Below are positions 9,544-55,206 of a stretch of DNA of 64,000 bases, piece by piece. Numbering within the stretch: the stretch's first letter is position 1; each line of letters opens with the position of its first letter. The notes under the pieces are model-generated. The model saw only the letters and a list, made by a program, of their open reading frames with translations. It was not told the origin of the DNA and did not search any database. This DNA is from an uncultured Alphaproteobacteria bacterium (lineage in GTDB: Bacteria > Pseudomonadota > Alphaproteobacteria > UBA11222), in the NCBI GenBank assembly GCA_947085295.1, contig CAMTVX010000005.1, positions 2,149 to 66,148 on the forward strand, read 5' to 3'. The translations under genes and the position numbers were made by a program.

Positions 9544-9930
9544 CTACCACAGCATCTTGACATCGTAAGCAGCGAACGCAGTATCGGGACTGATCAGCGT
9601 CAACCCCTCAATTTCAGCCTGCGCAATAAGTAATCGGTCAAAGGGATCCTTGTGATGCAATGGCAATTCACCCGCAAAAATCCCGTGCGCCATGCTTACT
9701 GGCAAAACTGCTACGTTCAAGCGTCCAAGCGCATCCCTTACCAGGGCCGAAGGTTGCCTATCCAGTGTGAGTTTTCCCAAGCGATGTTTTAAGGCTATCT
9801 CCCATCCCGACACGGCACTCAACACGACATCATTCGTTTGATCGACCAACAGCAGGCGTACTTCTGGTGACAACTTATCGGGTTCAGCCATCCACCACAA
9901 AAAAACACATGTATCCAGCAATAGGTTCAT
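9544..9930 (-). CDS. vapC: Type II toxin, PIN-domain ribonuclease (VapC-like)
   Basis: 128 aa with the PIN signature (MNLLLDTCVFLWW... D6 ... SAVSGWEIALK). It overlaps the upstream antitoxin gene by 4 bp. Confidence 0.8.
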   Translation of the reverse strand: MNLLLDTCVFLWWMAEPDKLSPEVRLLLVDQTNDVVLSAVSGWEIALKHRLGKLTLDRQPSALVRDALGRLNVAVLPVSMAHGIFAGELPLHHKDPFDRLLIAQAEIEGLTLISPDTAFAAYDVKMLW

Positions 9931-10157
9931 CCAGTAGTGCCGCCAAATTCCTCGGGCAGCGGATCATTAAAATCATCAGGGACAGAAAATTTACCGGCAT
10001 ATAATCCCATAGGCCTATCTCCTAACTGACGTATCGGCACTAATCGCGCCACCGGGGTGCCATCCCTTGCAATGACGACCTCCTCACCCCGGCATGCCCG
10101 CTCAATCAGTTTGGACAACTGTGTTTTGGCTTCATGCATATTTATCGTGATGGTCAT
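9927..10157 (-). CDS. Type II antitoxin, Phd/YefM family
   Basis: 76 aa (MTITINMHEAKTQLSKLIERACRGEEVVIARDGTPVARLVPI), a typical Phd/YefM N-terminal region, and it is coupled to the PIN toxin gene. Confidence 0.75.
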   Translation of the reverse strand: MTITINMHEAKTQLSKLIERACRGEEVVIARDGTPVARLVPIRQLGDRPMGLYAGKFSVPDDFNDPLPEEFGGTTG

Positions 10158-11789: not shown

Positions 11790-12481
11790 AAAGCTGCGTC
11801 ATCGTATTTCCCGGATCGAACTGCGACCGTGATGTGGCCGTGGCGCTTGCCGCCAGTAGCGGCACAGCCCCACAAATGGTCTGGCATGGCGAAACCGATT
11901 TGCCCAAATGTGATCTGATCGTTCTGCCTGGCGGCTTTTCTCACGGCGATTATCTGCGATCCGGTGCGATGGCTGCGCGCGCCCCAATCATGCGCGCGGT
12001 GATTGCCAGGGCGAACGCGGGCACCCCGGTGCTGGGCCTGTGCAATGGTTTTCAGATCATGACAGAAGCCGGACTATTACCCGGCGCGCTGATGCGCAAT
12101 GCGGGCCTGAAATTCATCTGCCGCGACGTGTTTCTAAAAGTCGAAAATACCGGCAACATCTTCAACCGCCGTTACACACAGGGACAAGTGGTGCGCATCC
12201 CCATTTCGCACCATGACGGCAATTATTTTGCCGATGCCGCCACACTGGACCGGCTGGAATCCACCGGCCGCGTCGCGTTTCGCTATTGCACAGCCGATGG
12301 TGTGGTGAATGCCGCCGCCAATCCCAATGGCTCGCTCAATAACATTGCCGGCATTCTGAACGAGGCAGGAAACGTACTGGGCATGATGCCACACCCCGAA
12401 CGCCTGATTGCGCCGGAACTTGGCGGCAGCGACGGCCGCGCCATGTTTGACGCCCTTGCTGGACTGCTGCAATGCGCATGA
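11786..12481 (+). CDS. purQ: Phosphoribosylformylglycinamidine synthase glutamine amidotransferase subunit
   Basis: 231 aa with the class I glutamine amidotransferase motif ([10 protein letters not shown]). It overlaps the purL start. Confidence 0.9.
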
Positions 12482-14667
12482 AAATCACACCGGAAATCGT
12501 CGCCGAACACGGCCTGAAGCCGGATGAATATGCGCATATTCTGCGCGTGCTGAACCGCGAACCCAATATCACAGAGTTGGGAATATTCTCGGCGATGTGG
12601 AACGAGCATTGCTCGTACAAAAGCTCGCGCGTATGGCTGCGCACCATGCCCACTACCGGCCCACAGGTCGTATGCGGCCCCGGCGAAAACGCCGGCGTCG
12701 TCGATATTGGCGACGGTCAGGTGGCGATCTTCAAGATGGAAAGCCACAACCATCCCAGTTTTATCGAACCCTATCAGGGTGCGGCCACCGGCGTTGGCGG
12801 CATCATGCGCGATGTGTTCACGATGGGCGCGCGCCCCATCGCCAATCTGAACGCCCTGCGTTTTGGCGCACCCGATAATGCCAAAACCCGGCATCTGGTG
12901 TCCGGCGTTGTGGCGGGCATTGGCGGCTATGGCAATTGCATTGGCGTCCCCACGGTTGGCGGCGAAGTAAATTTCGACCCCGGCTATAATGGCAATATTC
13001 TGGTCAACGCCATGTGCATCGGCATCGCCGATGCGGACAAGGTGTTTTATTCCACCGCCAGCGGCATTGGAAATCCTGTCGTTTATGTCGGATCAAAAAC
13101 CGGCCGCGACGGCATTCACGGGGCCAGCATGGCGTCGGCGGAATTTGACGAAAACTCCGAAGAAAAACGCCCCACCGTACAGGTCGGTGATCCGTTCACG
13201 GAGAAATTGCTGCTGGAAGCCTGCCTGGAACTGATGGCGGGCGATGCGGTGATCGCCATTCAGGATATGGGTGCGGCTGGCCTTACCTGTTCAGCCGTCG
13301 AGATGGCGTCCAAAGGCAGGCTAGGCCTGGCGCTCGATCTCGACAAGGTGCCGTGCCGCGAAGCGGGCATGACCGCCTATGAAATGATGCTGTCCGAAAG
13401 CCAGGAACGCATGCTGATGGTGCTGCACCCGGACCGCGTTGATGCGGCGCGCGCCATTTTCAACCGCTGGGAACTGGATTTCGCCATTGTCGGTAAAACC
13501 ACCGATACGGGCCGTTTTATCATCCACCACAAAGGTGAACAGGTTGCCGATCTACCCGTCGATGTATTGGCCGAACAGGCCCCTGTCTATCAGCGCCCCT
13601 GGACGCCCACGCCACCCGCGCCATATTTATCTGCAACAGATATTCCCGATACGGATGATCTGGGCGCAACCCTTGCCCGGTTGATGGGCGGCCCGCATCT
13701 GGCCAGCCGCCGCTGGATATGGGAACAATATGATCACATGGTCATGGGCGACACCGTACAACGTCCGGGCGGCGACGCCGCCGTGGTGCGCGTGCATAAC
13801 AGCCGCAAGGGTATTGCCGCCACCACCGATGTCACGCCGCGCTATTGCGCCGCGTCGCCCGTCGAGGGTGGCAAACAGGCCATCGCCGAAGCCTTCCGCA
13901 ATCTGTCCGCCGTCGGCGCAAAACCATTGGCCACCACCGACTGCCTGAATTTCGGAAATCCAGAACGCCCCGAAATCATGGGGCAGTTTGTCGGTTGTGT
14001 TCAGGGCATCAGCGAAGCCTGTATCGCACTGGACATGCCCATCGTGTCCGGCAATGTGTCGCTATATAATGAAACCATGGGTGCGGCGATACCGCCCACG
14101 CCTGCCATTGGCGCCATTGGCCTGCTGGAAGATATTGATCGCATGGCGACCATTGCCTTCAAACAGGATGGCGATGTGATTTTGCTTATCGGTGACAGCA
14201 ATGGTCATCTGGGGCAATCCATCTATGCCCGTGAAATTTCCGGACGCACCGATGGCGCGCCTCCGCCCGTTGATCTGGTGGCCGAACGCCGTAATGGCGA
14301 TTTTATCCGTGAACAGATCATTTCGGGAAATGTCACCGCTGCGCATGATATTTCGGATGGCGGCCTTCTGGTAGCGCTTGCCGAAATGGCGTTGGCCGGG
14401 GATCGGGGCTGTACGCTGAACCTGCCAAAAAAATCTGTTCTGCGTCATGCATATCTGTTCGGCGAAGATCAGGCGCGCTATGTGTTGAGCGCATCGCCCA
14501 TAAAGGCCGATGTCCTGATCGCGGCCGCAAACGCGCAAAATATTCCCGTAACAAAACTGGGTGCGGTAGGTGGACGCGATATCGTGCTGGACGGCAAGCC
14601 GGTGCATGCCGTTTCAGCCCTTCGCCATGCCCATGAAAACTGGTTTCCCCACTATATGGAGGGCTGA
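12472..14667 (+). CDS. purL: Phosphoribosylformylglycinamidine synthase subunit PurL
   Basis: 731 aa with the AIR-synthase-related domain architecture of FGAM synthase II ([13 protein letters not shown]...). Confidence 0.9.
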
Positions 14668-15329: not shown

Positions 15330-15890
15330 ATGATCCAGCTTCGCGCCGCCCGTCCAACCGACGCCGCCGCCATTGCCGCCATCCATGCGGACACGTGGCA
15401 GGAGACTTATGCCGGAATTCTACCGCCCGAGGCGATGGCGGCGAATAATTATGACGCCTGCCTGAAATTCTGGAAGCAGGAGCTTGTGCATTCACCGCAA
15501 GGCGTATTCCTCGCCGAAGATGATAAAATGGGCCCGATGGGTTTTGTCAGTGGCGGCCCCGCAACAGACCCAATTCGCATTGACACCGGCAATTTTCGCG
15601 GTGAAGTCCAAAAACTTTATGTCCGCCCGGTCTGTCAGGGCATGGGGCTTGGCGCGCAATTGCTGGAATCCGCCCTTGCCAATATGAGCCGCGCAGGTTA
15701 CAGCGCCGTAATGCTATGGGTTTTTGAGGATAACCCCGCCTGCAAATTTTACGACCGCATGGGCGGTCAGCCCATCGGCGAACGCACCACCGACTACAGC
15801 GGAAAAACCATGCGCGAAGTGGCCTATGGCTGGGGCGGTAAATTGCCCGCCCCAAAACCGCCTGAGCGCAAATCGCCAGCGCGGCGTTAG
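15330..15890 (+). CDS. GNAT family N-acetyltransferase
   Basis: 186 aa with acetyl-CoA binding motif A/B regions (...LYVRPVCQGMGLGAQLLESAL...). Confidence 0.65.
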   Translation: MIQLRAARPTDAAAIAAIHADTWQETYAGILPPEAMAANNYDACLKFWKQELVHSPQGVFLAEDDKMGPMGFVSGGPATDPIRIDTGNFRGEVQKLYVRPVCQGMGLGAQLLESALANMSRAGYSAVMLWVFEDNPACKFYDRMGGQPIGERTTDYSGKTMREVAYGWGGKLPAPKPPERKSPARR

Positions 15891-15926
15891 ATCGTTTCAT
15901 TATTTGACCGAATCGTCCCACTCCGG

Positions 15927-16061
15927 CGTCATTACGAGGAGCGAAGCGACGTGGCAATCCACCAAGCCTTCGCCAGAAGGCTACGGCTGGCAAAGGAGTC
16001 ACAAACTCAGGTCTTTGCGCGAGACTCTGGATTGCCACGCCTTCGGCTCGCAATGACAACG
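15927..16061. repeat. Nested palindromic intergenic repeat, family 1, copy 1 (135 bp, carries a 43-bp internal insert)
   Basis: Terminal inverted repeats CGTCATTACGAGGAGCGAAGCGACGTGGCAATCC ... GGATTGCCACGCCTTCGGCTCGCAATGACA. The internal module ACCAAGCCTTCGCCAGAAGGCTACGGCTGGCAAAGGAGTCACA is shared with copy 2. Confidence 0.8.
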
Positions 16062-17652: not shown

Positions 17653-18282
17653 TTAATCCGCCCGCAACATAAACAGTGACTGCGCGGCCAGCAAATTGGC
17701 CAATGGCCGATATTTGTTGGCCAGACTGACCTTGCCTTCCTTGTCCAGGGCGATAAAGCGTTCAATCTTAACGCCCATGCTATTTGTCATATCCACAAAA
17801 TCATCGATTGAACACAGATGAATATTCGGCGTTTCATACCATAAATACGGCAAGGACTGCGTTACCGGCATTTGTCCGCTGAACAAAAAATGCAGGCGCA
17901 CCCGCCAATGGCCGAAATTTGGAAATGAAATAATCGCGCGCTTGCCAATGCGCACCATTTCCCGCACGACTTTTTGGGGCTCCCGCGTAGCCTGAAGGGT
18001 CTGGCTGAGAATCACATAATCAAACCCCCTGGTCGGATAATTTACCAGATCCGTATCCGCATCACCCTGCACCACCGAAAGACCCTGTGCCACCCCGGCA
18101 TTCACGCCCTTCTGGCTTAATTCAATCCCACGACAATCCACATCGCGCGTAGTATTCAGTAGACGGAGTAATTCGCCATCCCCACAGCCCACGTCCAGCA
18201 CGCGGCTGCCGGGTTCGATCATCCTGGCGATCAGTTGCAGATCAACACGACCACCATTTTGCAGCGCTGGATCAATCGCCAT
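17653..18282 (-). CDS. metW: Methionine biosynthesis protein MetW
   Basis: 209 aa ([15 protein letters not shown]...). It overlaps the metX stop. Confidence 0.8.
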
Positions 18283-19963: not shown

Positions 19964-19983
19964 AAGCCCCTAAATCTCGACTT

Positions 19984-20047
19984 GTCATTCTGAGCAAAGC
20001 GAAGAATCCCCCGCCACGGCGAGATTCTTCGCTTTGCTCAGAATGAC
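19984..20047. repeat. Perfect 25-bp-stem hairpin GTCATTCTGAGCAAAGCGAAGAATC...GATTCTTCGCTTTGCTCAGAATGAC; mini-member of repeat family 1 and possible terminator downstream of mccA
   Basis: Seen directly in the sequence. The stem termini (GTCATT..GCGAAG) resemble the family 1 termini, and it lies between the mccA stop and the next gene. Confidence 0.6.
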
Positions 20048-20066
20048 AATGAGTCGAAGAGAATAC

Positions 20067-22937: not shown

Positions 22938-23032
22938 TCACCCCACCCCAACCCCTCCCCATAAAGGGGAGGGGCTTACCGCCGGGATATAATCTTCTCC
23001 CTCCCCCTCGTGGGGAGGGCCGGGGTGGGGGG
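22938..23032. repeat. G/C-rich nested palindromic repeat, family 2, copy A (intercistronic between the mccB and hydratase genes)
   Basis: CCCCACCCCAACCCCTCCCCATAAAGGGGAGGGGCTTACC...CTCCCTCCCCCTCGTGGGGAGGGCCGGGGTGGGGGG. A second copy lies at 55074-55206. Confidence 0.75.
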
Positions 23033-26042: not shown

Positions 26043-26933
26043 ATGCCCATAAACCGCCCGCTCAGCGACTGGATGATGCTGTTCACCCTGGTAGTGACCT
26101 GGGGATCGGCGTTCGCCCTCAACAAGATCGCCCTTCAGTCGATGCCGCCCCTGATCATGGTGGCGGGCCGTCTCGTTGTGGCCGCACTGGTCCTGCTGGC
26201 AGTCAGTGGCTGGCAAAGGCATTCCCTATGGCTGCCCTGGCGGCGATGGGGGTTTTTTATCCTGCTTGCTGTGGTTGGGAATTGCATCCCGTTCTTTTTA
26301 ATTAGCTGGGGGCAACTCAGTGTGGACAGCGCGCTTGCGGGCATCCTCATGGCGGTAATCCCGCTGCTAACATTGCTGTTGGCGCATCTGGCGCATCACA
26401 CCGAGCGCATCACACTCTATAAACTTACTGGATTCGTAATCGGCTTTGGCGGCATTGTGCTGCTGGTCGGACCAGAGGCCCTGCGCAATCTTGGCGGCGC
26501 AAGCTTTATCGCGCAACTCGCCATACTTGGCGGGGCCACCTGCTACGCCATCAATGTGGTGATCACGCCATTTAATCGCGTCAGCAACACGATGGTCACC
26601 ACAACCGCCACCATTCTGATCGCCGCAATCATCATGCTGCCTCTGGCGCTGTCGCAACACCCGCCCGCCAGCCTAAGCCTTACCCTTGAGTCTGTTCTCG
26701 TGGTGAGTGTGCTTGGGGTGTTTGGCACAGCATTGCCGACACTGATTTTCTTTCGCCTGGTCGCCAGCGCCGGGCCAACCTTTTACGCCCTGATCAATTA
26801 CATGATCCCTGTCTGGGCGGTCATCATCGGCGCACTGTTCCTGCACGAACGCCCGGAATGGAACGCCTACGCCGCACTTGCGCTAATCCTATGCGGAATC
26901 GGCGTCAGCCAGATGATGCGCAGGGCGGATTAA
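26043..26933 (+). CDS. DMT superfamily transporter (EamA-like, two EamA repeats)
   Basis: 296 aa with 10 predicted TM helices. Confidence 0.7.
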   Translation: MPINRPLSDWMMLFTLVVTWGSAFALNKIALQSMPPLIMVAGRLVVAALVLLAVSGWQRHSLWLPWRRWGFFILLAVVGNCIPFFLISWGQLSVDSALAGILMAVIPLLTLLLAHLAHHTERITLYKLTGFVIGFGGIVLLVGPEALRNLGGASFIAQLAILGGATCYAINVVITPFNRVSNTMVTTTATILIAAIIMLPLALSQHPPASLSLTLESVLVVSVLGVFGTALPTLIFFRLVASAGPTFYALINYMIPVWAVIIGALFLHERPEWNAYAALALILCGIGVSQMMRRAD

Positions 26934-26959
26934 AGCGGGATTGTTTACACTCTCTCAGT

Positions 26960-27082
26960 GTCATTGCGCGCGAAGCGTGGCAATCCACCAAGCCTTCGCC
27001 AGAAGGCTACGGCTGGCAAAGGAGTCACACGGATAGGCCTTCGCGTACGGCTCTGGATCGCCACGCTTCGCTCGCGATGACG
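26960..27082. repeat. Nested palindromic intergenic repeat, family 1, copy 2 (123 bp, with the 43-bp insert)
   Basis: GTCATTGCGCGCGAAGCGTGGCAATCC + shared insert ... GGATCGCCACGCTTCGCTCGCGATGACG. Confidence 0.8.
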
Positions 27083-27125
27083 ATAAAGGATATGACTGCA
27101 TCTAAAAAAACACCACGCCATAAAC

Positions 27126-27941
27126 TTATAAAAATATTTTCCCCTGCATATACAATGCACAATCGCCGCGCAAAATAACCCGCTCTCCCGCATCGGTACA
27201 GTACAGCCACCCGCCGCGCGACGATGCCTGATAGGCCGTAATATCCGCCCGCCCCAGCCGCTTGGCCCAGTATGGAATGAGCTGCGAATGCGCGCTGCCC
27301 GTTACAGGATCCTCGGGAACGCCAATTGCAGGCGCAAAAAACCTGGAAATTACATCATAGTCAGTACGCGCATTAGCGGGCGCGGTTACAACAAGCCCAT
27401 CACAAAGTTTGGCAACAGCCGCCAGGTCCGGTGTCAGATGGCGAACCACATCCTCGCGATCAAACACCGCCATCAGATAGGGACCATTAAAATTCGCGCT
27501 CAGAAATTCCGCTGGTTGCGCACCCAGCGCTTCAACTAATCCCGCAGGGGCCGCACACGCAACACTTCTCGCGGCCGGTAATGACATCGCCAGGCGCGCG
27601 GGAACCGTATCCCGCCATACTTCCAATGGGCCACTCAACGTATGAAACACCACACGGTCATCTGTTGGCTTTAGCAGATTCAGCACAACATATCCTGAAG
27701 CCAGCGTCGCATGGCCGCAAAGTTTTACCTCGACCTTTGGTGTAAACCACCGCAGACGATAGCCATCGCCTTCCGGTACAAAAAAAGCGGTCTCCGCAAG
27801 ATTGTTTTCGGCCGCAATGGATTGCATCACCGCATCATCCAGCCATTCTGTCAGCGGACAGACCGCCGCCGGATTACCCGCGAACAGATCGCTTGTAAAA
27901 GCGTCAAGCTGATAAATCGGAATTTCAATCTGCGTCATCAT
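27126..27941 (-). CDS. PhzF family phenazine-biosynthesis-like isomerase
   Basis: 271 aa (IPIYQLDAFTSDLFAGNPAAVCPL...), PhzF/DAP-epimerase-like fold. Confidence 0.75.
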   Translation of the reverse strand: MMTQIEIPIYQLDAFTSDLFAGNPAAVCPLTEWLDDAVMQSIAAENNLAETAFFVPEGDGYRLRWFTPKVEVKLCGHATLASGYVVLNLLKPTDDRVVFHTLSGPLEVWRDTVPARLAMSLPAARSVACAAPAGLVEALGAQPAEFLSANFNGPYLMAVFDREDVVRHLTPDLAAVAKLCDGLVVTAPANARTDYDVISRFFAPAIGVPEDPVTGSAHSQLIPYWAKRLGRADITAYQASSRGGWLYCTDAGERVILRGDCALYMQGKIFL

Positions 27942-28766: not shown

Positions 28767-28862
28767 CGTCATTGCGAGGAGCGAAGCGACGCGGCAATCC
28801 AGAGTCTCACGCAAAGGCCTGAGTTTGTGACTCTGGATTGCCGCGCTTCGCTCGCAATGACG
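28767..28862. repeat. Nested palindromic intergenic repeat, family 1, copy 3 (96 bp, no insert, core in inverted orientation)
   Basis: CGTCATTGCGAGGAGCGAAGCGACGCGGCAATCCAGAGTC...GACTCTGGATTGCCGCGCTTCGCTCGCAATGACG. Confidence 0.8.
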
Positions 28863-44640: not shown

Positions 44641-44865
44641 AATAACAGTGAAGCCGCCACCGCGGTTGGAGTGTACAAACCCCCGGGCGCCTGTTGCTAC
44701 AGGTGGGCGCCATATATCCCAGACCACGATCCGGGACAGGGACAGCTCCCTTCGGGTGGTTTAAGGCCCCTGGGTATGTGGTCTCCTGACCAACGGGGCA
44801 GCCTCATTAATGAGTATACCACAGATCGACCTTAAATGGCCGGTTTTTTCCTAAACCAGCCTGAT

Positions 44866-44961
44866 GACTTTCTTTCGTCATTGCGAGCGAAGCGCGGCAA
44901 TCCAGAGTCCCACGCGAAGACCTGAGTTTGTGACTCTGGATTGCCGCGTCGCTACGCTCCT
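44866..44961. repeat. Nested palindromic intergenic repeat, family 1, copy 4 (96 bp)
   Basis: CGTCATTGCGAGCGAAGCGCGGCAATCCAGAGTC...GACTCTGGATTGCCGCGTCGCTACGCTCCTCGCAATGACG. Confidence 0.8.
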
Positions 44962-45007
44962 CGCAATGACGGCGGAGAGGCTGTGCTTCAATCAAATCTG
45001 AAATGCC

Positions 45008-52881: not shown

Positions 52882-53020
52882 GTCGCCAGACTATCCGAAA
52901 ATAGCCTTATTTTCTAAGCCCGATTTTCTGCCCCTGTTTTAGCGCCATTGAAAGGCCGCAATGCACCGGATAATGTCCCAATAAAGGGAGTCTCTCCTGA
53001 ATAGGGATTCGCCAGCCCAT

Positions 53021-53096
53021 TAGACCGACAAATGTCCCTTAGACCTACAAATGCCCCTTAGACCTACAAATGCCCCTTAGACCTACAAATGAAAGG
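53021..53096. repeat. Tandem direct repeat array, 19-bp unit TAGACCTACAAATGCCCCT x about 4
   Basis: The units are 53021-53039 (TAGACCGACAAATGTCCCT), 53040-53058, 53059-77 (the middle two identical) and 53078-53096 (degenerate at its 3' end). Confidence 0.85.
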
Positions 53097-53110
53097 CACA
53101 GTGCCGAACG

Positions 53111-53251
53111 ATGTCAAAGCTGCTTGGTTCCATACTGGTTTTGCTCGTCGCCATATTTATCGGCGGAGCGATTTATATTTCAATCTGGGACGTGCCACCA
53201 CCGGTGCGCACTGTCGAGAAAGTCTTGCCGGATGAAATGCTGGGCAAGTAA
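53111..53251 (+). CDS. Candidate small membrane protein (46 aa), not in the ORF track
   Basis: ATG 53111 to TAA 53249-53251 encodes MSKLLGSILVLLVAIFIGGAIYISIWDVPPPVRTVEKVLPDEMLGK, one clean TM helix. It starts 14 bp after the tandem repeat array and overlaps the start of the next gene by 20 nt. Confidence 0.3.
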   Translation: MSKLLGSILVLLVAIFIGGAIYISIWDVPPPVRTVEKVLPDEMLGK

Positions 53252-55016
53252 CCGCAGTCGGCATATCGCATTTTTCTCCGGTTTTCTTGGTGTTGCGGTT
53301 GTTGCTCTTGCGCATGGCATCGCACAGGCACAGGCCCCGATACCGCTTCGTCCACCATCTGAACTGGCGCCTGCCACACCTCTGCCCCCTGTCACTGAGG
53401 AATATCCCGCCGAAACTGAAAATGACGGCATCAGCACGGGTGCGCTTGGGCAACTGGATTTTGCTTCTGTCGGGATACTGACGGCTGACAGTGGCGGCTT
53501 TGGGCCACAGACATGGCAAGGTGCGGATCGCGCCCTGGTGGAGCGTCTGCTGCCAAAATTACCGGTTACGACACACTCCCCCACCCTGCAAAAGCTGATG
53601 CGGCGACTATTGCTCAGCACCGCCGAACCGCCACAGGGAACCAGTACCGGCGCATCCTTCATTGGTTTGCGTCTTGAGCGGCTGATAAAGGCCGGACACT
53701 TTGAACAGGCTGCACAGATGTCCGCACTGGCGGGTGGCCCCACCAGGGACGAAGCCCTGTTACAGGCACGTGCCGAAATTGCGCTGGCATCTAACGAATT
53801 CAAACAGGCCTGTGATATGGCCGCAGCACAGGTTCGCGCCAGCGAGGCTGTCTTCTGGCTGAAACTCACCGGGTTTTGCCAGATCATCAATGGCGATGAG
53901 GCCGCAACGCAATTGACCGCATCCCTGGTCGCCGAACAGGAACCGGACGATACCGGATATCAACGTCTGCTGGCTGCGCTGATCAGCAAATCCGGCAGGC
54001 TGCCAGAAAATCTGCCGCATCTGGACATCCTGCAATTAGCGATGATCCGATTTGCATCACTACCACTGCCAGAAAAAATTGACGATCATGCTGCACCCGC
54101 TGTTTTGAAATTGATGGCGCGCATGCCCGGCGCATCGGTGCAACAACGCCTGCCCGCCGCCGAACGCGCCGAGGCCGCAGGCGCAATAGGCCCGCAAGAG
54201 GTGGCCCAGCTTTACTCTGAAATGCCCTTCACCGTGGAAGATCGCGCCGGGGCCGCTGAACTGGCGACAACACTGCCCCCCGCCCAGGCCAACGCCTTGC
54301 TGTTCCAGTCCGTGCGCGGACAGGATTCCACCGCCGGCCTGACACTTGCGCTATCCGCTGCATGGCGGCTTGCCCGCGCCAGCAACAGTTTTGCAACCGT
54401 TTCCCGTGTCAATCTGACCCCCATACGCGATCTGGTTCCCGCGCCGGAAATGATCGAAATTGCCGCTGAAGCCGGTCGCGCATTGCTGCTGGCGGGCGAT
54501 CCTTTGGCCGCGACTCGCTGGTATGATCTGGCCCGCGCATTAAGCATTCCCGGCAACAATCCCGCCGCAACGCGCGCCAAAAATGACCTGTGGCCGTTGT
54601 TGCGGCTGGCGCAACCTGTTGCGGGCATACCAGAGGATCCTCTCGAAATCACCGCCTGGCTGGCGCAATTATCGCCAGAGGATAAAACCCGCAAGGGGCC
54701 TATCCTGCTCTCCGCCATGTCGGCGCTGGATATGGCCACACCGGAGTCCGAATGGGTCGCCATGGCGCAGGATACCAAAAAAACCGATGCGGCTGCGATG
54801 CCGCCAGCGGCGTTGCTGCATCTGCTGATGGAAGCCAGCCAGAGCGGGCGCGTCGGGCAAACCGTTTTGTTAAGCCTTGCCTGTCTGGGCGAAAATGGCG
54901 CGGGCCTGACGGACCCGTTATTGCTGGGAATTACCGTGCGCGCGCTCAACACCGTTGGTTTGCAGACAGAAGCCCGCGCACTAGCGCTGGAGGCGGCGTT
55001 GCAGGCTGGGATTTAG
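53232..55016 (+). CDS. Secreted Ala/Leu-rich helical protein of unknown function (signal peptide; about 594 aa)
   Basis: An internal ATG at 53232 gives the signal peptide MKCWASNRSRHIAFFSGFLGVAVVALAHGIAQAQA; the track's 54 upstream codons are probably not translated. The rest is predicted largely alpha-helical and repeat-like. It lies between aroK and xerD. Confidence 0.5.
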   Translation: MKCWASNRSRHIAFFSGFLGVAVVALAHGIAQAQAPIPLRPPSELAPATPLPPVTEEYPAETENDGISTGALGQLDFASVGILTADSGGFGPQTWQGADRALVERLLPKLPVTTHSPTLQKLMRRLLLSTAEPPQGTSTGASFIGLRLERLIKAGHFEQAAQMSALAGGPTRDEALLQARAEIALASNEFKQACDMAAAQVRASEAVFWLKLTGFCQIINGDEAATQLTASLVAEQEPDDTGYQRLLAALISKSGRLPENLPHLDILQLAMIRFASLPLPEKIDDHAAPAVLKLMARMPGASVQQRLPAAERAEAAGAIGPQEVAQLYSEMPFTVEDRAGAAELATTLPPAQANALLFQSVRGQDSTAGLTLALSAAWRLARASNSFATVSRVNLTPIRDLVPAPEMIEIAAEAGRALLLAGDPLAATRWYDLARALSIPGNNPAATRAKNDLWPLLRLAQPVAGIPEDPLEITAWLAQLSPEDKTRKGPILLSAMSALDMATPESEWVAMAQDTKKTDAAAMPPAALLHLLMEASQSGRVGQTVLLSLACLGENGAGLTDPLLLGITVRALNTVGLQTEARALALEAALQAGI

Positions 55017-55073: not shown

Positions 55074-55206
55074 CTCCACCCCACCCCAACCCCTCCCCAT
55101 CAGAGGGGAGGGGCTTTACCACCGCGTTCTGATCTTCTTCTCCCTCCCCCTCTCGCCAAGCGAAGCTTTGGCGTAGCTTTGTGCGGGGAGGGCCGGGGTG
55201 GGGGGA
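55074..55206. repeat. G/C-rich nested palindromic repeat, family 2, copy B (with a 32-bp insert)
   Basis: CTCCACCCCACCCCAACCCCTCCCCATCAGAGGGGAGGGGCTTTACC...CTCCCTCCCCCTC[TCGCCAAGCGAAGCTTTGGCGTAGCTTTGTGC]GGGGAGGGCCGGGGTGGGGGG. It ends 10 bp before the xerD start. Confidence 0.75.

Follow-up and report, generated by a model that had tools for sequence, protein, structure and literature searches.

A family of palindromic intergenic repeats occupies a 64,000-nt stretch of DNA from an uncultured alphaproteobacterium (contig CAMTVX010000005.1, positions 2,149 to 66,148; hereafter the window), and each of its elements is probably an inverted doublet of a hairpin motif of the NTS/SRM kind, with an Ssn nuclease of the GIY-YIG type, and not a REP-associated tyrosine transposase (RAYT; REP, repetitive extragenic palindrome), as the likely partner. 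We put the probability of this reading at about 0.75. It is built on direct observations of the anatomy of the elements, the covariation within their hairpins, the spread of the unit across phyla, the physical linkage of their own motif class to Ssn-like genes and the polymorphism of the occupied sites between related genomes.

The system on which this interpretation is modelled was described in Neisseria, where the dRS3 repeats lie within an oriented hairpin of 28 nt, the NTS (CGTCATTCCCGCGMAVGCGGGAATCYRG), which is bound by SsnA, a 94-aa single-domain GIY-YIG protein, as single-stranded DNA (ssDNA) only and not in its RNA form, and is cut a few nucleotides upstream (Chenal et al. 2025, Nat Commun, PMC11893778). 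Binding depends most on the C after the palindrome and cleavage most on the three nucleotides upstream, GTC, which SsnA requires and ahead of which stands a base other than G; in Neisseria, the Ssn system reduces transformation by NTS-bearing DNA. The same study assigns the Ssn family to GIY-YIG domain cd10448, reports that ssnA homologues of many phyla are bracketed by related motifs, named SRM, for which it gives the degenerate sequence HGTCWYN(0-2)YYVSBRHN(0-5)WNVSBRGN(0-2)RNCYNB, draws a parallel with RAYT and REP, and proposes Ssn nucleases as tools for manipulating ssDNA (PMC11893778).

In the window, four full copies (c1 to c4) and one mini hairpin, every one of them intergenic, were confirmed. 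A repeat finder recovers every relationship among them, and the arm pattern matches three times in the window against 0.13 matches expected, a number that none of 100 shuffled sequences reached. Furthermore, a covariance model trained solely on units from sources outside the window retrieved exactly the eight units of c1 to c4 from the 64 kb (E from 1e-10 to 9e-5), with the two units of the mini hairpin ranking next at E of about 0.1 and nothing further. The elements and their parts are as follows.

15928 to 16057: copy 1 (c1), consisting of long unit, 36-nt insert, core and short unit, between a GNAT gene and gloB (convergent).
15928 to 15960, plus strand: c1 left unit, long, GTCATTACGAGGAGCGAAGCGACGTGGCAATCC, with one basal-stem mismatch; covariance model 43.3 bits, E 6e-8.
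15961 to 15996, plus strand: c1 insert module, 36 nt, ACCAAGCCTTCGCCAGAAGGCTACGGCTGGCAAAGG; 89% identical to positions 17898-17933 of a locus from a related metagenome-assembled genome (MAG), L134.
15997 to 16028, plus strand: c1 linker or core, AGTCACAAACTCAGG...GAGACTCT; on the plus strand its orientation is the reverse of that of the c3 and c4 cores.
16029 to 16057, minus strand: c1 right unit, a short-type variant, GTCATTGCGAGCCGAAGGCGTGGCAATCC; covariance model 40.4 bits.
19984 to 20047: mini doublet, whose two units of a second motif class (GTCATTCTGAGCAAAGCGAAGAATC) stand inverted around a 12-nt loop, between a DUF1489-like open reading frame (ORF) and a biotin carboxylase gene.
26960 to 27081: copy 2 (c2), consisting of short unit, insert, diverged core and short unit, between an EamA-type exporter gene and a PhzF-family gene (convergent).
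26960 to 26986, plus strand: c2 left unit, short, GTCATTGCGCGCGAAGCGTGGCAATCC; covariance model 29.6 bits.
26987 to 27022, plus strand: c2 insert module, 36 nt, 100% identical to the c1 insert.
27023 to 27054, plus strand: c2 linker or core, a diverged c1 core (repeat finder: 87% over 91 nt).
27055 to 27081, minus strand: c2 right unit, short, GTCATCGCGAGCGAAGCGTGGCGATCC; covariance model 36.9 bits.
28768 to 28861: copy 3 (c3), consisting of long unit, core and short unit, between the glmM stop and the thiD start.
28768 to 28800, plus strand: c3 left unit, long, GTCATTGCGAGGAGCGAAGCGACGCGGCAATCC; covariance model 53.9 bits.
28801 to 28834, plus strand: c3 linker or core, AGAGTC-N22-GACTCT.
28835 to 28861, minus strand: c3 right unit, short, GTCATTGCGAGCGAAGCGCGGCAATCC; covariance model 40.5 bits.
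44877 to 44970: copy 4 (c4), consisting of short unit, core and long unit, with the cobT stop on one side and the upstream region of a 6S RNA gene on the other.
44877 to 44903, plus strand: c4 left unit, short, identical to the c3 right unit; covariance model 40.5 bits.
44904 to 44937, plus strand: c4 linker or core, 95% identical to the c3 core and in the same plus-strand orientation.
44938 to 44970, minus strand: c4 right unit, long, GTCATTGCGAGGAGCGTAGCGACGCGGCAATCC; covariance model 54.5 bits.

Each 'terminal inverted repeat' of these elements is an autonomous unit of 27-33 nt with sharp borders, in which a variable small hairpin is set into a conserved frame, Y-GTC-ATTGC-GAG-[variable small hairpin]-CG-NN-GCAAT-C, or in its general form GTC-ATTSC-GAG-[apical hairpin]-CG-NN-GSAAT-C. 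The long arm of 33 nt reads GTCATTGCGAG-GAGCGAAGCGA-CGCG-GCAATCC and the short arm of 27 nt (range 27-29 nt) GTCATTGCGAG-CGAAG-CGCG-GCAATCC; the long arm stands on the left in c1 and c3 and on the right in c4, and both arms of c2 are short. The basal stem of the c2 right unit carries a compensated change, ATCGC/GCGAT, by which it mismatches the c2 left arm, and c2 and c3 agree at 13 of the 14 nt past their short unit. In the mini copy the motif is of a different class, GTCATTCTGAG...GAAGAATC, and the arms match perfectly over 27 nt (19982-20008 and 20023-20049). A whole doublet can fold into a long hairpin (DNA fold -42 to -44 kcal/mol, z about -9 to -11; mini doublet -33.2 kcal/mol, z -11.7), and the inverted arrangement of its units places one correctly oriented motif on each strand.

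A first-pass annotation of the window, made from the letters alone, had described four full copies and a mini-copy of a REP-like family of modular, recombining palindromes, all of them intergenic. This description is borne out by the repeat finder, the shuffles and the covariance model as to the count, holds for the four full copies and the mini hairpin as to location, and is a fair one as to kind, as small hairpin units paired in inverted orientation across variable linkers resemble REPINs, BIMEs and NIMEs. Its details need some revision. The limits given for copy 4, 44866-44961, lie about 10 nt too far to the left, and the proposed 30-bp terminal repeats are indeed inverted but come in the two forms described above. 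The inner palindrome is degenerate in c2. The insert shared by c1 and c2, reported as 43 bp and palindromic, is identical in both but spans 36 nt (15961-15996 and 26987-27022) and is palindromic only in part. The core of c1 does run opposite to those of c3 and c4 on the plus strand; relative to arm polarity, however, c1 and c4 agree and it is the c3 core that is inverted. Proximity to gene 3' ends, finally, applies to c1 and c2, which lie between convergent genes; c3 is positioned between the glmM stop and the thiD start, and c4 between the cobT stop and the 6S upstream region.

An important question is whether the hairpin of the unit is just a by-product of its sequence or is itself maintained. 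Basal stems are exchanged as pairs, with ATTGC/GCAAT replaced by ATTCC/GGAAT (23 cases) or by ATCGC/GCGAT. Pair counting over 50 units found 31 cells altered on both sides (9.2 in shuffles), and the covariation score of 0.106 in this set was reached by none of 500 shuffles (0.031 in shuffles), with slid controls far lower. Above the basal stem, the 232 distinct apical segments have a mean DNA fold of -2.11 kcal/mol compared with -0.68 kcal/mol in shuffles, and 77 of them fold better than all 30 of their own shuffles. Because of these stem compensations, the better-than-shuffled apical folding and the covariation, we conclude that the hairpin of the unit is under selection. Most apical loops are triloops, GAA or GCA, with a closing C-G pair; GNA triloops are a class known from stable DNA mini-hairpins. 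Together with the pyrimidine-rich 5' flank of the units, they hint indirectly at strand-specific binding and cleavage of ssDNA.

By its features the unit closely resembles the NTS and SRM motifs. All ten window units are semi-palindromes within the 20-50 nt range, made up of the basal stem ATTGC/GCAAT and an apical hairpin, all ten have the GTC head with a pyrimidine at position -1, and in all ten a C follows directly after the palindrome. What they share with the NTS/SRM motifs is thus Y-GTCAT, a palindrome running from ATT to AAT, the following C and often a CAG tail, as well as their occurrence in many intergenic copies, often as inverted pairs. Since the features critical in the Ssn paper, i.e. 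the three nucleotides upstream and the C after the palindrome, are invariant in these units, the link to Ssn is supported. The window hairpin departs from the simple perfect stem of the published motifs: its basal stem of 5 bp is followed by an asymmetric internal loop (GAG / CGNN) and topped by an apical mini-hairpin that can be exchanged.

This unit is spread nearly unchanged across phyla. The 33-mer occurs at 94-97% identity in Halomonas, Methylosinus, Methylocystis, Novosphingobium and human-faecal phage contigs (BLAST against plasmids and phages), at least 120 contigs match in an IMG/VR scan with GTCATTGCGAGGAGCGNAGCGACG, and the short form was also met by chance in an Aminicenantes MAG. 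Border analysis of 120 non-redundant external instances among the matches listed shows that conservation spans positions -1 to +32, with random sequence outside; position -1 is a pyrimidine in 112, G in eight and never A, and the C directly after the palindrome, a base left free in the search pattern, is present in 114 of them. Outside the window, units occur solo, as inverted doublets and in same-strand tandem arrays, with irregular spacing in multi-copy loci, and solo units are oriented without preference with respect to nearby ORFs (crude gene calls). Two IMG/VR contigs (L011 and L073, GC 54%) carry same-strand tandem arrays of up to five units with pyrimidine-rich spacers of 11-19 nt; on L011, 15 units lie on one strand within 13 kb, all antisense to genes, with arrays at 2670-2856 and 11850-12781. 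No such same-strand tandem arrays are present in the 64-kb window.

The connection to a nuclease comes from genes that such units bracket. With a GIY-YIG protein sequence as tblastn query (60-67% identical to annotated 'GIY-YIG nuclease family' genes), units of the form GTCAY-hairpin-RATC were found to flank Ssn-like genes in Azospirillum, Rhizobium, N. gonorrhoeae, Planktothrix, Sphingobium, Photobacterium and Spirosoma; those of N. gonorrhoeae are the canonical NTS, and that of Planktothrix (L209) is GTCATTCTGAG...GAAGAATC, the class of the window mini copy. All eight aligned Ssn-like proteins match PF01541, which is the only match of the proteins linked to the window motif class. For this class, the arrangement corresponds to NTS-ssnA-NTS, as the gene between its units in other sources is a single-domain GIY-YIG gene of about 95 aa. 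A protein-only scan of IMG/VR yielded two genes bracketed by GTCATTGCGAG...GCAATC units (L272, L274) and one bracketed by mini-class units (L269); a viral-contig scan for unit plus Ssn C-terminus gave two matches, one of which (L295) is false. The GIY-YIG protein found in Subdoligranulum is of the YhbQ/UPF0213 type, has no units nearby and was set aside as irrelevant.

A metagenome scan for a GTCATTGCGAG unit located 27-57 nt beyond an NPxWxD coding motif returned at least 120 loci, and among the 120 matches listed a full Ssn-like ORF, mostly of 80-100 aa, is present in 115, a yield enriched by design since part of the Ssn C-terminus, if only a short one, was built into the pattern itself. This design has no bearing on the homology over the full length, on the upstream units or on the two protein-only matches. 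Among these listed matches, units stand on both sides of the gene in 82 loci; upstream of it, where the pattern demanded no unit, the closest one belongs to the GCGAG class in 72 of 95 loci; and the commonest apical types are the short form of the window, CGNAG (93), and its long form, GAGCGNAGCGA (32). The loci are usually arranged as [short(+) spacer long(-)] ssn [short(+) spacer long(-)], so that a locus such as L309 has the window doublet flanking the gene. The proteins, too, are of a particular type: again among the matches listed, 91 of the 101 Ssn-like proteins adjoining GCGAG units contain EKxIK(A/G)GSRxKK, which differs from the KKWNRxWK of NTS-type Ssn. Conversely, 70 genes fetched by protein similarity comprised 68 of the KKW.R.WK type and two of the GSR type, and these two are the only ones of the 70 with GCGAG flanking units. 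Because protein type and flanking motif class vary together, the sequences support a dedicated nuclease subclade, K(A/G)GSR, for the GCGAG motif class.

By analogy to SsnA of N. meningitidis (PMC11893778), a mechanism can be proposed. The motif comprises the Y-GTC head, the 5-bp stem ATTGC/GCAAT, the GAG / CGNN loop, an apical mini-hairpin, mostly with a C-GNA-G triloop, and the C after the palindrome, and it would fold once the DNA becomes single-stranded during replication, uptake, conjugation or repair. A single-domain GIY-YIG nuclease of the K(A/G)GSR subclade, presumably encoded elsewhere in the source genome, may then bind the folded unit strand-specifically and nick a few nucleotides 5' of the GTC, within the pyrimidine-rich flank; the sites in the window would be cleaved in this way by their cognate enzyme. 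The doublets with their linker modules would be copied between intergenic sites in a REPIN-like manner, and this is also how we picture their spread.

Several points weigh against this interpretation. The published SRM sequence has no match in the window on either strand, with long, short and mini units all failing, because TTGCGAG or TTCTGAG stands where the pattern demands YYVS; the NTS and the Azospirillum units pass it. The published string is an operational search string and not a biochemical criterion. No GIY-YIG/ssn gene is located within the 64-kb window, and the commonest 33-mer by itself has an unremarkable nearest-neighbour fold energy. When filled and empty sites of related genomes are aligned, no clean insertion boundary appears, as the filled lineage has about 90 extra nucleotides besides the element. 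To these points has to be added the enrichment built into the metagenome scan, as described above.

Alternatively, the first-pass annotation had considered a RAYT/IS200-like tyrosine transposase as partner, i.e. a domesticated HUH enzyme encoded elsewhere which recognizes the ssDNA hairpin and copies doublets. Imperfect palindromes, inverted doublets of two arm types with an oriented 5' tetranucleotide, variable but defined linkers and intergenic location are indeed as in REPs, BIMEs and REPINs, as is a single partner gene bracketed by repeats and, by analogy, a hairpin that would act on ssDNA, with which the GNA triloops fit; it is also the parallel that the Ssn paper itself draws. The head, however, is GTCA in every unit and not the GTAG or GTGG tetranucleotide before the palindrome which defines REPs. 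REPs are species- or genus-specific, whereas the 33-mer is near-identical across phyla. Moreover, the bracketed gene is of the GIY-YIG type in 115 of the 120 metagenome loci among the matches listed, and no Y1 transposase was noticed bracketed by units in these listed loci, where no dedicated Y1 search was made. The evidence thus points to a GIY-YIG partner, which, unlike the HUH Y1 enzyme RAYT (TnpA_REP), forms no covalent DNA intermediate, and a RAYT seems very unlikely. Still less plausible is that the 27-33-bp arms are the terminal inverted repeats of a DDE-type insertion sequence that mobilizes the elements in trans, as in miniature inverted-repeat transposable elements (MITEs) such as the Correia elements of Neisseria. 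In size (94-130 bp), inverted termini, intergenic multicopy occurrence and presence or absence between relatives, the elements do look like MITEs, as had been suggested from the window sequence. But no direct repeat in the flanks of any of the five copies indicates a target-site duplication, no parent insertion sequence accompanies them and no transposase lies between such arms in the fetched loci, where the gene is the GIY-YIG gene of about 95 aa; the supposed termini stand alone or in same-strand tandem arrays of up to five, which transposon termini do not, the inner border of the unit is as sharp as the outer one, and the arm is itself a covarying hairpin. We regard this alternative as scarcely tenable.

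A primary role at the RNA level, with the elements serving as terminators or as 3' hairpins that shield upstream mRNAs from exonucleases, was likewise among the early suggestions. As RNA, a whole doublet would reach about -64 kcal/mol (z about -9 to -11), c1 and c2 lie between convergent genes and c3 and c4 just past glmM and cobT, and REPs of E. coli are known to stabilize upstream mRNA. Yet a T-run follows the hairpin at no copy on either strand and a terminator scan flags none of the five elements, so that the terminator idea finds no support. Nor does orientation fit, with solo units unbiased relative to genes (crude gene calls) and the L011 units antisense in 15 of 15 cases. The loops are C-G-closed triloops and not tetraloops of the RNA type, no Rfam family matches either the whole window at the gathering threshold or copy 1 at E<=10, and the RNA form of the Neisseria motif is not bound by SsnA (PMC11893778). 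A primary RNA role is therefore highly improbable, though the copies may have a secondary mRNA-stabilizing effect. Further readings of the 33-mer, i.e. as K-turn, ribozyme, sigma-54/sigma-70 promoter, CRISPR-like solitary repeat, integron attC, Xer/dif or shufflon site, were dropped because spacing or consensus do not fit, orientation is not tied to gene direction and unit spacing is irregular. A literature text search for the arm sequence returned unrelated primers only.

Returning to the NTS/SRM-type doublets with an Ssn partner, another close counterpart is dRS3/NIME of Neisseria, in which hairpin repeats (ATTCCC-N8-GGGAAT, within the NTS) flank variable intergenic modules of 50-150 bp to form a mosaic, and the arm, core and insert modules of the window behave alike. 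In contrast, the stem sequence is different, the host is an uncultured freshwater alphaproteobacterium and the copies are far fewer, with five doublets in 64 kb. In Neisseria, dRS3 is also a target for phage integration.

How the doublets come and go can be followed among the closest relatives of the window, which are uncultured, mostly freshwater, alphaproteobacterial MAGs with good synteny (enoyl-CoA hydratase up to 96% amino-acid identity). The c3 site holds an orthologous doublet in L129 and L134 but none in L126 and L128, and a 6-nt indel has turned the long arm of the L134 doublet into a short one. No element occupies the c1 and mini sites in L126-L128. Because a composite of arm, insert and core like that of c1 and c2 recurs at a different locus of L134, the doublet plus its modules appears to be the copied unit. 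The neighbourhood of c2 is a variable spot within conserved synteny, since a comparison of 26987-27941 with L129/L134 gave no match for the right flank of c2, and the adjacent PhzF-family gene has no counterpart in any of the related loci.

For the source genome, the elements are ordinary intergenic passengers. On a larger scale, they are novel relative to the kind described in 2025 in their two-tier hairpin, in their distinct nuclease subclade and in being invisible to the published search pattern. The Ssn logic, which provided a link for dRS3-like hairpin repeats after two decades without explanation, extends to a motif class missed by the published string, one abundant in viral contigs as well as in metagenomes from soil, freshwater and gut. 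This widens the catalogue of candidate site-specific ssDNA nucleases, points to the segment KKWNRxWK or K(A/G)GSRxKK as one that may vary with motif specificity, and provides annotators with a means to recognize these repeats and the spurious ORFs to which they give rise. More tentatively, the GTCATTGCGAG...GCAATC hairpin and the K(A/G)GSR Ssn protein could be a pair that moves horizontally across phyla and phages, serving either ssDNA restriction or anti-invasion or else a selfish, homing-type spread; we consider this possible but doubtful. If so, the two-tier hairpin would be a naturally modular ssDNA cleavage site, and published surveys, among them one of 17,718 genomes, would have undercounted Ssn motifs by a search pattern that excludes a class abundant in metagenome and IMG/VR scans.

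The region around the copies is of a housekeeping nature, with purL, grx, GNAT, gloB, metW/X, methylcrotonyl-CoA carboxylase genes, thiD, glmM, folP, ftsH and cobT. The 6S RNA (SsrS) gene next to c4 lies at 44647-44807 on the minus strand (Rfam RF00013, 76.5 bits), and c4 is situated about 70-160 nt upstream of its 5' end, at the expected promoter location. Predicted ORFs at 26858-27178 (plus strand), 44807-44995 (minus strand) and 15724-16056 (plus strand) cross the repeats and encode peptides such as VIAREAWQS and HCEERSDAAIQ; annotations may well owe spurious 'hypothetical proteins' to repeat-crossing ORFs of this sort.

A second, unrelated palindromic repeat family with C-rich and G-rich arms (CACCCCACCCCAACCCCTCCCC ... 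GGGGAGGGCCGGGGTGGGGGG) and an inner hairpin, CCCCTCCCC-N5-GGGGAGGGG, is represented at 22939-23032 and 55077-55205. The copy at 22939-23032 sits between the enoyl-CoA hydratase and carboxyltransferase genes, and the same gap in L128 and L134 is occupied by a doublet of the GTCATTCTGAG class (CTGAG); since the occupants of the window and of L128/L134 differ, one intergenic gap accepts different hairpin elements. On the Planktothrix agardhii plasmid p1 (L209), the Ssn-like gene and its hairpin units (1492-1776) have an MmeI-type restriction-modification gene on one side and the DISARM gene drmA on the other, and thus lie inside a defence-gene neighbourhood. In the window, a small gene pair at 9544-10157 on the minus strand resembles a VapC (PIN) toxin with its antitoxin, as judged from translated N-termini only. 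Four tandem 19-bp units (GCCCCTTAGACCTACAAAT) at 53015-53090, which overlap the start of a long ORF (53070-55016), could be iterons or operator repeats.

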